45,218 nt of DNA from a candidate division WS1 bacterium (lineage in GTDB: Bacteria; Armatimonadota; Zipacnadia; Zipacnadales; Zipacnadaceae): positions 1-45,218 of the forward strand of contig JAAYIR010000045.1 in the NCBI GenBank assembly GCA_012523355.1, read 5' to 3'. How positions within the stretch are numbered: position 1 is the first letter of the stretch; each line of letters begins with the position of its first letter. The notes under the pieces were generated by a model. That model ran no database searches and was not told the origin of the DNA. It worked only from the letters and a program-made list of their open reading frames with translations. Positions 10,553-13,245 of the stretch are shown piece by piece. A program made the translations under genes and the position numbers.

Positions 10553-11626
10553 ATGTCGAGTTCACGATACCCCTGGCCAGGCGTGATAGAGTATTACAGC
10601 GACTTCCTGCCGGTGTCCGATGCGACTCCGCGCGTGACGCTGCTGGAGGGCAATACGCCACTGATCCCGTCGGTCAGTATCGGCCCTTCCCTACCGGGGA
10701 AGCTGGAGCTGTGGTTCAAGTACGAGGGCGTGAACCCCACGGGTTCCTTCAAGGACCGGGGCATGACCATGGCTATCTCCAAGGCCGCTGAGGCGGGCGC
10801 GAAAGCCACCATGTGCGCCTCGACCGGGAATACTTCGGCGGCGGCAGCGGCCTACAGCACCCGCGCGGGGATGCTGTCCATCGTGCTTATCCCGGCAGGC
10901 TACGTGGCACTGGGGAAGCTAGCCCAGGCCCTGTCCTATGGAGCGCGAACGATTCAGGTAGACGGGAACTTCGACGACTGCCTGCGGCTGGTGCGCGAGA
11001 TTACCGACAAGTATCCGGTGGTGCTGGTCAACTCGCTGAATCCCTACCGGATGGATGGACAGAAGACCGCAGCCTTCGAGGTCTGCGACGCGCTGGGGGA
11101 GGCGCCCGCCTATCACGCGTTGCCGGTGGGGAACGCCGGTAACATCACCGCCTACTGGTGGGGCTACAAGGACTACCAGGAGCGAGGAATCACCGAGCGC
11201 ACGCCGCGCATGCTGGGCTTTCAGGCGGCGGGCGCAGCGCCGCTAGTGAGCGGGGAGCCGGTGTCGAAGCCGGAGACCGTGGCCACCGCCATTCGCATCG
11301 GCAATCCCGCGCGTTGGCAGGACGCCATGAAGGCGGTCAAGGAGTCGGACGGGATCCTCCGCGCGGTCACGGACGAAGAGATTCTCGCGGTCTACCAGGA
11401 GCTCGCGGCGAAGGAAGGCATATTCTGCGAGCCGGCCAGCGCGGCCTCGGTGGCAGGAGTTATGAAGGTGGCCGCCGAAGGGTTCTTTGGTGAGGAATCG
11501 GCGACGGTCGTCTGCACGCTAACCGGCCACGGGCTCAAGGACCCCGACCGGGCGGTGTCTCTGGCCCAGGAACCCGAAGAGGCTCCGGCAGAGACAAAGG
11601 CGATTGTGGAGATGTTGGGGTTCTGA
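10553..11626 (+). CDS. thrC: Threonine synthase
   Basis: EGNTPL, NPTGSFKDRG (PLP lysine), ASTGNTS, PVGNAGN, TGHGLKDP. Confidence 0.97.
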   Translation: MSSSRYPWPGVIEYYSDFLPVSDATPRVTLLEGNTPLIPSVSIGPSLPGKLELWFKYEGVNPTGSFKDRGMTMAISKAAEAGAKATMCASTGNTSAAAAAYSTRAGMLSIVLIPAGYVALGKLAQALSYGARTIQVDGNFDDCLRLVREITDKYPVVLVNSLNPYRMDGQKTAAFEVCDALGEAPAYHALPVGNAGNITAYWWGYKDYQERGITERTPRMLGFQAAGAAPLVSGEPVSKPETVATAIRIGNPARWQDAMKAVKESDGILRAVTDEEILAVYQELAAKEGIFCEPASAASVAGVMKVAAEGFFGEESATVVCTLTGHGLKDPDRAVSLAQEPEEAPAETKAIVEMLGF

Positions 11627-11627
11627 A

Positions 11628-11716
11628 GACTCACCCCGCCCTGCTGCGCAGGGCGACGCTCCCTTTGAAAAGGAGGGTGCGCCGCAGACGGCGTGCAGAA
11701 GACGACTCGGACCCCA
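11628..11716. repeat. REP-like triple-hairpin repeat, copy A
   Basis: Near-identical direct repeat of 12100-12187. Confidence 0.9.
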
Positions 11717-11718
11717 GG

Positions 11719-12318
11719 ATGAGTCAGCCAACCGGCAAGGTGGTCATCGTCTCGATTGACCGCGAACGTTATCTGGCTCTGCGGGAACGCGCCCGAGAAA
11801 TGAGGCGGGAGCCCACGCTGGCTGAAGCCGCGCTCTGGAAGCGTCTGCGGAACGGCCGACTGGGTAGATGGCACTTTGAGCGTCAGTTTGTGGTTGGGGA
11901 GTTTATCGTTGATTTCTACTGCCATGCGGCGCGGCTAGTGGTGGAGGTGGATGGCCCGGTTCACGACCATCAGACCGAACGTGACGAGGACCGGGATGCT
12001 ACTCTCGTATCGCAAGGGTTGCGGGTTCTGCGCTTTCCGAATGAGCGGGTGCTGAGGGACATCTGCGCGATCTTGAGCGAGATTCGGCGGGCCGCAGAGG
12101 ACTCTCCCCGCCCTGCTGTGCAGGGCGACCCTCCCTTGAAAGGGAGGGTGCGCTGCAGACAGCGCGCAGAGAACGACTCGGAGCCAGAGCAGGTTTTGCT
12201 GGAGGAATCCGCAGCGCGCGTACTCGCGCGCTACCCTCCCTTCCAAGGGAGGGTCGGCAGCGTCCGCGCTGCCGGGGTGAGTCCCCGGCGGAGACGAAGG
12301 CGATTGTGGAGTTGCTAG
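11719..12318 (+). CDS. DUF559 / Vsr-like endonuclease domain protein
   Basis: PTLAEAALWKRLR, FERQ, FIVDFYC, LVVEVDGPVH, RDEDRD, GLRVLRFPN; the C-terminal ~70 aa are translated repeat sequence. Confidence 0.92.
   Translation: MSQPTGKVVIVSIDRERYLALRERAREMRREPTLAEAALWKRLRNGRLGRWHFERQFVVGEFIVDFYCHAARLVVEVDGPVHDHQTERDEDRDATLVSQGLRVLRFPNERVLRDICAILSEIRRAAEDSPRPAVQGDPPLKGRVRCRQRAENDSEPEQVLLEESAARVLARYPPFQGRVGSVRAAGVSPRRRRRRLWSC
12100..12187. repeat. REP-like triple-hairpin repeat, copy B (direct)
   Basis: GACTCTCCCCGCCCTGCTGTGCAGGGCGACCCTCCCTTGAAAGGGAGGGTGCGCTGCAGACAGCG...GACTCGGA. Confidence 0.9.
12233..12283. repeat. REP-like double-hairpin repeat, copy C (inverted)
   Basis: Reverse complement reads GACTCACCCCGGCAGCGCGGACGCTGCCGACCCTCCCTTGGAAGGGAGGGT. 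Confidence 0.9.
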
Positions 12319-12371
12319 GCCTGGCGCAGATGCCCTTAGGAACGGGTGAAACAGATGGACGATTCTCCTGA
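12285..12371 (+). pseudogene. Displaced duplicate of the thrC 3' end
   Basis: Translates PAETKAIVELLGLAQ...FS* versus thrC PAETKAIVEMLGF*; 30/36 nt identical. Confidence 0.75.
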
Positions 12372-13245
12372 AAAGGCAATTCTGTACACTGACCTGCCGG
12401 GGGCTTTGAGTCGGCGGTTTGGGAAGGTGCGCGATATCTATGACTACGGCGATTGTCTGCTCATCGTCGCCACCGACCGCATCTCCGCCTTCGACTGCGT
12501 CATGCCCAACGGCATCCCCGGCAAGGGGAAGATCCTCACCGCGCTCTCCAAGTTCTGGTTCGACAAGACACAGCATATCATCCCCAACCACATCATCTCC
12601 ATGGACCCCGCGGACTTTCCGGAGCCCGCCCAGGAATCAGCGGACTTGCTGGAAGGGCGCACGATGATGGTCCAGAAGGCCGAGGTGGTGCCGGTGGAGT
12701 GTGTGGTGCGCGGATACCTGGCCGGGTCAGGGTGGAAGTCGTATCAGGAGACCGGCGAGGTCTGCGGACATAAGCTCCCGCCGGGCCTGCAACTCTCCGA
12801 CCGCCTGCCTGAGCCGCTCTTCACCCCCTCCACCAAGGCCGAATCGGGACACGATGAGAATATCTCCTACGCGCAGGCCGCGGAGATTGTGGGACAGGAG
12901 ATAGCCGATCAGCTCCAGGAGAAGTCGTTGGCGCTGTATAACTTCGCCAACGGGTACCTCACCACGCGGCGGCTGATGATTGCGGATACCAAGTATGAAT
13001 TTGGCCTGCTGGACGGCAAGCTGATCGTGATCGATGAGATGATGACGCCGGACTCCTCCCGCTACTGGGACACGGACAAGTATCAGTCTGGTCGCGCGCA
13101 GGAGGCCATGGACAAGCAGTACGTGCGCGATTACCTGGAGACGCTGGACTGGAACAAAGAGCCCCCGGCGCCGGAGCTGCCGCCGGAGGTGGTGGCGGAG
13201 ACAAGGCGGATCTATGAAGAGGCCCTGCGCCGCGTCACCGGTTGA
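12355..13245 (+). CDS. purC: SAICAR synthetase
   Basis: GKVRDIY, ATDRISAFD, PVECVVRGYLAGSGW, IADTKYEFG, TPDSSRYW, DKQYVRDYL; alternative GTG start at 12346. Confidence 0.97.
   Translation: MDDSPEKAILYTDLPGALSRRFGKVRDIYDYGDCLLIVATDRISAFDCVMPNGIPGKGKILTALSKFWFDKTQHIIPNHIISMDPADFPEPAQESADLLEGRTMMVQKAEVVPVECVVRGYLAGSGWKSYQETGEVCGHKLPPGLQLSDRLPEPLFTPSTKAESGHDENISYAQAAEIVGQEIADQLQEKSLALYNFANGYLTTRRLMIADTKYEFGLLDGKLIVIDEMMTPDSSRYWDTDKYQSGRAQEAMDKQYVRDYLETLDWNKEPPAPELPPEVVAETRRIYEEALRRVTG

Follow-up and report, generated by a model that had tools for sequence, protein, structure and literature searches.

Repeat-bracketed DUF559 nuclease gene between thrC and purC in a candidate division WS1 bacterium

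The insert between thrC and purC

The stretch analyzed here, called the window below, comprises 45,218 nucleotides (nt) of a candidate division WS1 bacterium (assembly GCA_012523355.1, contig JAAYIR010000045.1, forward strand). Between the threonine synthase gene thrC and the SAICAR synthetase gene purC it carries a gene for a DUF559 nuclease that is bracketed by hairpin repeats, and a second copy of the end of thrC lies beyond these repeats (Table 1). The insert between the two copies is 658 nt long (11627-12284). Copy A consists of the last 12 sense codons of thrC ahead of the final Phe codon, and the 3' end of the gene reads ...PAETKAIVEMLGF before its stop codon TGA (11624-11626). Copy B (12285-12320) is identical to copy A at 30 of 36 bases, including a 15-nt identical core, and both encode PAETKAIVE(M/L)LG. 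Four of the six differences are in third positions, one is a synonymous first-position change in a Leu codon and one is ATG/TTG (M/L). The repeat search extended the pair to 41 nt at 83% identity (family D4). The frame of copy B remains open until the TGA at 12369-12371 and overlaps the purC start at 12346; no upstream start codon yields an open reading frame (ORF) of at least 40 amino acids from it. A first-pass annotation, made from the letters of this DNA alone, had described the 36-nt recurrence with its coordinates, the five synonymous differences among six and the downstream frame running into purC, and all of this was borne out.

When six random substitutions were simulated in the 36 nt, at most one amino-acid change resulted with P = 0.0045. 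So few amino-acid changes suggest that both ends diverged while encoding ThrC, i.e. in different lineages. The mostly synonymous differences thus favour two thrC ends with separate coding histories, and the same pattern argues for the earlier proposal that both copies had evolved as coding sequence.

An assembly error, named in the first-pass annotation as a reason to drop its reading, was excluded by data from an independent study, since a 6453-nt contig (run X2) covers positions 10900-13100 in the same arrangement with 8 differences and no gaps. Short contigs from three further runs bridge the left and right junctions. In all, 20 runs from 11 studies contain the window in whole or in part. 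In run X18, one contig differs from the window at 12 of 323 positions in thrC (11017-11339) while its neighbour from that run is identical to the window, which could reflect either a strain mosaic or a strain mixture.

The thrC gene was present in 40 of 40 relatives searched, and the thrC loci of 29 relatives were examined. In 26 of these purC is the next gene, in 10 the gap between thrC and purC measures 14-29 nt, and in none is DUF559 present at the locus. Such DUF559-free junctions, which the first-pass annotation had proposed to look for, identify the cassette as an insertion, and its insertion relative to an ancestral thrC-purC junction is supported by this comparison. Where the working copy of the window has its final Phe, 28 of the 29 relatives have Leu, which the displaced copy also keeps. 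In some relatives (L007, L008) a long ThrC tail extends to purC. ThrC proteins of the same genus are 82-85% identical to the working ThrC.

Table 1. Positions of genes, repeat modules and thrC-end copies at the thrC-purC locus of the window
Feature	Position	Strand	Basis and remarks
thrC (threonine synthase), working copy	10553..11626	+	ORF; Pfam PALP, E 9.3e-69; ends ...IVEMLGF + TGA
thrC-end copy A, in frame, in use	11585..11620	+	repeat search (family D4)
Left repeat module L: terminus GACTCACCCC and three hairpins, the middle one degenerate	11627..11714	+	direct repeat of 12100-12185, 88%; DNA fold z = -3.3
Putative degenerate right end of the upstream unit, GGATGAGTC	11715..11727	+	reading of the sequence; cf. 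GGGGTGAGTC at 12274-12283
DUF559 (Vsr-like nuclease) ORF	11719..12318	+	Pfam PF04480, E 1.3e-34; domain encoded by 11779-12093
Repeat module R1, direct copy of L, three intact hairpins	12099..12185	+	88% to L; DNA fold z = -4.8
Repeat module R2, inverted copy, same terminus	12186..12284	-	DNA fold z = -6.95
thrC-end copy B (12285-12320) and open tail ...ELLGLAQMPLGTGETDGRFS + TGA	12285..12371	+	sequence, ORFs, repeat search
purC (SAICAR synthetase)	12346..13245	+	Pfam SAICAR_synt, E 1.4e-74

The repeat search found perfect inverted ends of 11 nt at 11628-11638 and 12273-12283 (I13). The first-pass annotation had reported these ends correctly, but they are the tips of larger modules, and the recurrence of module L at 12100-12185 and the nature of R2 as an inverted module had been missed. 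In each module, a terminus G(G)ACTC(A/T)CCCC is succeeded by a row of three GC-rich hairpins. Three modules occur in the cassette, one before the gene and two after it as an inverted pair (R1+R2). The modules were folded as single DNA strands and compared with shuffled sequences; R1+R2 fold as one unit with their termini paired (z = -10.7). R2 follows the three-hairpin plan too, but the stems of its hairpins 1 and 3 differ in sequence, indicating that the pairing is conserved and not the letters. Copies of 12236-12284 on other contigs (runs X2 and X18) match up to exactly 12284, which fixes the right boundary of the cassette. The right half of the upstream unit seems to be lost, and the remnant GGATGAGTC appears to supply the ATG of the DUF559 gene at 11719; on another contig of the same genome (C226), the ATG of a DUF559 gene likewise directly follows GGGGTGAGG. 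A search of 11400-12500 against Rfam 15 at E up to 1 gave nothing but microRNA models far below their cut-offs.

The DUF559 profile matched with 118.8 bits (cut-off 20.6) over positions 3-107 of 109, and the NCBIfam model PRK09767, "DUF559 domain-containing protein", scored 78 bits, under its equivalog cut-off of 218. The last 73 codons of the ORF are repeats read through, and the frame ends within copy B in another frame than thrC. As the first-pass annotation had stated, the nuclease is the sole product with a family match inside the cassette: among the ORFs of the 658 nt, Pfam revealed no transposase, HUH/Y1 transposase or recombinase. Apart from a sub-threshold MTES_1575 match, Pfam gave no second domain beside DUF559, and no long N-terminal DNA-binding region is present. 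A PADLOC search returned only a weak DpdF stretch (E 8e-6), and a phage collection two weak matches.

Among solved structures the only sequence match was 3HRL (E 8.5e-18). An AlphaFold model built from 32 homologues (pLDDT 83.9) has about 50 N-terminal residues with two helices ahead of the domain. A Foldseek search with this model retrieved 3HRL (E 2.3e-7) and 3R3P, the catalytic domain of the homing endonuclease I-Bth0305I (E 2.1e-4, target-normalised TM 0.75, probability 1.0), as the closest folds, in agreement with the earlier description of DUF559 as Vsr-like. PvuRts1I and AbaSI matched more weakly and Vsr itself (1CW0, 1VSR) at E 0.1-0.2, and the Vsr family was absent from the Pfam matches at E up to 0.01. 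The predicted protein would thus have a Vsr-like nuclease fold without being a member of the family of Vsr endonucleases for mismatch repair. D65, E76, D78, H82, D89 and R92, invariant in the family, are all present in the protein of the window; the first five of these are invariant in the 32 homologues and at least 95% conserved in 101 homologues.

DUF559 genes and hairpin units in other genomes

The genome of the window contains four DUF559 genes, and all four are adjoined by CTCACCCC-type hairpin modules. Within the family, DUF559 was found in 6 of 17 genomes, with 3-7 copies per genome in the same genus, and in 0 of 8 genomes of a sister genus. Flanking repeats were present at 17 of 21 DUF559 loci of the family (12 direct, 5 inverted) and at 4 loci neither type was seen. 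The inverted arms measure 45-63 nt at four loci besides the window and 21 nt at a fifth. These cassettes occupy many unrelated, mostly intergenic sites, the left end typically lying 1-20 nt past a stop codon. At two cassette sites of another genome (G003), the genome of the window has only a solo hairpin element. One DUF559 locus of the genome (C117) is syntenic across the genus; its modules have dozens of near-identical copies elsewhere in sister genomes.

A census of the genome counted 597 perfect GC-rich hairpins in 54 clusters. Perfect 8-bp hairpins stand on both sides of one of the four DUF559 genes (random expectation 0.5%), a figure that was not used as a statistic; by eye, the other three loci have imperfect or 7-bp stems. 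Elsewhere in the window, at 1879-1920, lies a solo two-hairpin element resembling repetitive extragenic palindromes (REP), of a type seen on many contigs of the genome. In another genome (G009, L043:1602-2903, minus strand), a DUF559 match (E 2.4e-28) lies in a 433-amino-acid frame; Hint_2 and Intein_splicing match on either side of it and N6_N4_Mtase in the tail after it, all three below threshold, and hairpin repeats surround the frame. This frame is probably an intein using DUF559 as its endonuclease.

In order to look beyond the family, a cross-phylum set was formed from the best 80 of 224 relatives (45-60% identity), spanning Chloroflexota, cyanobacteria, Armatimonadetes, Bipolaricaulota, Fraserbacteria, Latescibacterota and others. 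Of the 64 loci with full flanks, 40 have flanking repeats 30 nt or longer; in two sets of 67 control windows each, placed 1.1-1.4 kb away, there were none. Repeats around other DUF559 loci, for which the first-pass annotation had proposed a survey, are thus frequent inside and outside the family. Many of the loci share a unit of about 90 nt with a tip ACCTAACCCC, two hairpins with nearly invariant stems and a tip GGGGAGAGGT, which occurs from AT-rich Anabaena/Nostocales to GC-rich Anaerolineae (Chloroflexota); it was also seen with DUF559 in single metagenome-assembled genomes labelled Bipolaricaulota and Poribacteria. Its second stem shows paired changes from CT/AG to CC/GG. Two hairpin cores lay within 350 nt of DUF559 at 64 of the 80 loci, with 2.78 per kb compared with 0.064 per kb further away (43-fold), and a covariance model of the unit gave 314 matches in 498 kb of DUF559 loci.

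Ten Nostocales loci have in common only a block of about 615 nt, unit-DUF559-unit (87-97% identity), and differ in their flanks. Solo units are scattered through Nostocales genomes without visible target duplication, and DUF559 homologues were also found on cyanobacterial plasmids. At the level of sequence, these comparisons establish that repeat-bracketed DUF559 cassettes are common to cyanobacteria, Chloroflexota and the family of the window, that the DUF559 gene is compact, apparently intact and tightly and specifically associated with a conserved hairpin unit, and that gene and units occur as a block in different contexts, the units also alone. A mobile cassette is well supported by this pattern. 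Rfam gave no match at gathering score in seven related loci, with sub-threshold matches only in L078, and the openly readable literature, supplements aside, yielded no published link of DUF559 or Vsr-like genes to flanking hairpin repeats.

Integron attC sites were considered and set aside: one tip of the unit holds an RYYYAAC-like word, but neither its other tip nor the tips in the window conform to it, and a unit consists of two short, perfect hairpins. At one locus (L238, G056:C1:2625585-2626124), two tandem units of about 95 nt each follow the same 24-nt flank, so that flank and unit appear to have been duplicated together. On a plasmid of Synechocystis sp. B12 (CP101712.1, 34736-36405; L249), a DUF559 cassette with inverted arms and a CCTCACCCC-type tip is located between a coding sequence for DUF1156 and a "hypothetical protein", and may split one gene.

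Origin of the cassette and of the two thrC ends

At the nucleotide level, 101 loci were surveyed for direct repeats of host sequence outside the units. A clear outer duplication was found at three of them: the window, L085 and L060. In L085 a complete FGE-sulfatase gene is present and its last 45 or so codons recur past the cassette in decayed form with a stop codon (56 nt at 86%); in L060 a larger insert is enclosed by a non-coding repeat of 29 nt at 93%. Gene-end duplications at other DUF559 loci, which the first-pass annotation had suggested surveying, therefore proved rare. Weaker pairs (L070, L093, L104, L084) were left outside this count. In L084 a 25-nt direct repeat (88%, 340-364 and 1368-1392 of the region) surrounds DUF559, its upstream copy lying before the cassette and its downstream copy at the start of a pentapeptide-repeat-like ORF; this may be another duplicated gene end, or repeat genes may match here by chance. 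A protein-level search of the 101 loci for diverged gene-end copies gave 375 matches that were swamped by low-complexity and repeat-encoded ones. No consistent short target-site duplication of fixed length was seen at cassettes or solo units, the outer repeats measuring 29, 36-41 and 56 or more nt. Since neither thrC nor purC occurs at any of 97 other DUF559 loci, nothing indicates homing directed at thrC, and the carried gene end does not appear to be a trait of the family. The mobile element proposed in the first-pass annotation stands as a repeat-bracketed block found in different contexts, whereas homing specific to thrC is not supported.

The thrC-purC junction itself was informative. Both genomes of the same genus with a thrC locus carry other insertions there. 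In a sister species (G002, L003, locus 1005-2385), thrC and purC are 1379 nt apart, with a DUF3800 ORF (E 2.8e-12) and a 103-amino-acid ORF without family between them. The working purC start is downstream of the DUF3800 gene, and upstream of that gene a remnant of 16 codons from the purC 5' end has stayed; of five differences between these purC starts three are synonymous, and no DUF559 is present. The junction is an insertion hotspot at which gene-end duplication is not tied to DUF559, and the DUF3800 case points to a general recombination route and not to a DUF559-specific device. In the other genome (G003, L002), an ORF with DNA-methyltransferase-like motifs, recognized by eye, directly follows the thrC stop codon instead of purC.

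We estimate a probability of about 0.5 for the account as a whole, namely that the insert belongs to a widespread kind of selfish, repeat-bracketed DUF559 cassette and was imported together with a donor thrC end by one-sided recombination. As far as our searches show, this kind of cassette, a DUF559 gene between dispersed hairpin units whose outer tips form terminal inverted repeats, is apparently undescribed. For the two thrC ends, recombinational import of an occupied thrC region from a related lineage is the best reading. The cassette would first have sat just behind the thrC stop codon of that lineage, the usual position of such cassettes, and would have entered the present lineage by recombination. 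The left side may have been resolved by homology within thrC, bringing in the last codons of the donor (...EMLGF, stop). On the right side the joint would have been made without homology: at a microhomology of three bases (TCC), located 39 nt upstream of the last conserved Leu codon of the recipient, the cassette tip ...GAGTCC would have met the recipient ...GCTCC/GGCGG (the stroke marking the joint), TCC being common to both. The recipient's own thrC end (...ELLGLAQ...) would have been displaced and left as an untranslated remnant running into purC.

As for the spread of the cassettes, the nuclease might cut or nick at or near the units, repair off an occupied copy would carry the gene into or beside them, and recombination between direct copies could delete the gene and leave a solo unit. 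Such "homing into a repeat", in which an occupied copy serves as repair template and a solo unit becomes unit-gene-unit, would account for several features: unit copies that flank the gene in direct orientation, missing target duplications, block boundaries that fall sharply at unit tips, and units that are near-identical from Nostocales to Chloroflexota. Where resolution was occasionally one-sided, host sequence next to the cassette would be imported, as at thrC. That the nuclease drives the spread by cutting at the units is put forward tentatively.

Several observations weigh against this account. The proposed action of the nuclease on the repeats is deduced from the association of gene and units. 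The synonymous excess rests on six differences; had selection continued on the upstream copy alone after a duplication in place, a rough calculation by hand puts P at about 0.05. Within the genus, no cassette copies of at least 85% identity were found at different places, so that recent movement in the genus is not demonstrated. The protein of the window has E54 where at least 95% of the 101 homologues have R. The covariance model of the cross-phylum unit gave no window match among the matches listed, which makes the modules of the window a divergent type. No strain-level empty allele was found, since a metagenome scan with purC gave only relatives of at most 60% identity; likewise, no contig skipping the cassette appeared in four runs, with fragmentary cover in three. 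Finally, at the 8 differing sites, genomes of the same genus agree with the upstream copy 4-5 times and with the downstream copy 2-3 times, whereas more distant relatives lean toward the downstream copy (nucleotide comparison of 15 relatives); the native thrC end is not told by relatives. The earlier suggestion of a foreign gene end is plausible from the synonymous pattern, but the relatives do not identify the foreign copy.

The main rival of import is that the 36-41-nt repeat is a long target-site duplication made on insertion, e.g. by filling in of widely staggered nicks, with the copies diverging in place. It fits the direct host repeats outside the cassettes of L060 and L085, and the divergence of the thrC copies (17%) is near that of modules L and R1 (12%). 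Five synonymous differences and one M/L exchange would nevertheless be improbable under free drift, by the simulation as well as by the hand estimate for one drifting copy, the repeat length varies among loci, and such a repeat is missing from 98 of the 101 loci and from the inspected inverted-repeat cassettes and solo units. We regard a duplication in place as rather unlikely. An element homing on thrC, free-standing, always carrying a replacement and perhaps cleavage-resistant thrC 3' end and spreading by cutting empty thrC alleles, would account for the synonymous divergence and for the in-frame stop codon supplied right at the cassette edge. Its enzyme would have the Vsr-like fold of I-Bth0305I, and DUF559 domains act as intein endonucleases according to the available text of PMC9403480, as is probably also the case in L043. 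The distribution speaks for something else: cassettes sit at unrelated, mostly intergenic sites shortly past stop codons, none of the 97 other loci involves thrC or purC, outer duplications are confined to three loci of which one is non-coding, and the DUF3800 insertion shows a like duplication without DUF559. The protein also lacks the long DNA-binding N-terminal region of characterised EDxHD enzymes, and we consider homing on thrC unlikely.

The insert might also be no mobile cassette at all, if an ordinary cellular DUF559 gene had accumulated REP-like hairpins around it and the thrC-end copy had arisen by chance or slippage. The genome is indeed rich in REP-like hairpin elements, the C117 locus is syntenic across the genus, and the cassette copies within the genus are old. 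Against this, control windows had no flanking repeats in 134 cases compared with 40 of 64 DUF559 loci, conserved hairpins are enriched 43-fold near the gene, the unit found with DUF559 has one sequence in AT-rich Nostocales and GC-rich Chloroflexota alike, the block recurs between different flanks, and none of the 29 relatives has DUF559 at its thrC-purC junction. This explanation is very improbable, and import of an occupied thrC region remains preferred.

Comparison with known systems

Vsr-like homing enzymes of the EDxHD type have a long N-terminal DNA-binding region, as described in the available part of PMC3239194, and reside in introns, inteins or split genes of phage-like DNA, as far as the accessible portions of PMC3239194 and PMC2677866 tell. 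For fractured-gene loci, hairpins upstream of the endonuclease ORF are reported in the accessible portion of PMC2677866. The cassettes share with the EDxHD enzymes and I-Bth0305I the nuclease fold, a selfish character, a patchy distribution and a sometimes free-standing gene. Unlike these, the present protein is a domain of about 126 amino acids with a short two-helix lead, and its cassette lies between intact thrC and purC, bracketed by dispersed units, with no intron, intein or split gene.

A second comparison is with REP sequences and their associated tyrosine transposases (RAYTs). RAYTs are single-strand transposases of the HUH/Y1 type, few enzyme genes being accompanied by many scattered REP repeats that lie mostly just downstream of genes. 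The likeness is one of organisation and not of homology: a single enzyme gene stands between copies of a hairpin repeat which elsewhere is dispersed solo. The present enzyme differs in being of the PD-(D/E)XK-type, Vsr-like, and its units differ in having two or three hairpins and inverted termini. DUF559 nucleases could be the partner enzymes of the cross-phylum two- and three-hairpin units, forming a second REP/RAYT-like system with a Vsr-like nuclease, although we hold this idea with less than even confidence. Insertion sequences and miniature inverted-repeat transposable elements also have terminal inverted repeats, which are present here as 11-nt perfect tips extending to inverted three-hairpin modules; the cassette has no transposase and no fixed-length short target-site duplication.

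The exchange of a gene end also has parallels. In fungal mitochondria (Allomyces atp6), a mobile endonuclease ORF brings a foreign 3' end of its host gene while the former end persists; mobile repeats in the form of GC-rich double hairpins are found there as companions, and the enzymes are of the GIY-YIG or LAGLIDADG type. Insertion of an endonuclease ORF with a foreign gene 3' end and retention of the displaced end resemble the present case, which differs in that the Allomyces system is organellar and that in the DUF559 family a carried gene end is the exception. Prophage e14 and phage 21 integrate into icd by means of an integrase and bring a substitute 3' end. As at thrC, the duplicate ends differ mainly synonymously around an identical core and a displaced remnant persists, whereas integration there is integrase-mediated and the 658-nt cassette has no recombinase. 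In homology-facilitated illegitimate recombination after DNA uptake, one end is anchored by homology and the other is joined at a microhomology of a few bases. This process, usually described with deletions rather than duplications, would explain foreign DNA together with a hybrid gene, and also the DUF3800 case of the sister species.

DUF559 is among the commonest nuclease domains of "unknown function" in bacteria. If DUF559 genes drive or ride hairpin repeats, many "hypothetical" genes and GC-rich intergenic repeats would be explained, the odd low-complexity tails of annotated proteins would be ORFs reading into repeats, and a compact nuclease with a recognisable DNA partner would be at hand for biochemical study. 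The cross-phylum pattern of DUF559 and hairpin units, which looks like a little-studied family of selfish DNA, is in this respect a more interesting result than the thrC case. The latter suggests that an essential operon junction tolerates insertion when the insert supplies the gene end and the old end stays as a fossil, and, judging by the sister species, the same junction is a hotspot for other cargo. In another family of the order (G018, L024), a DUF559-free thrC-purC gap of 231 nt contains solo hairpin units ending in GGGGTGAGG.

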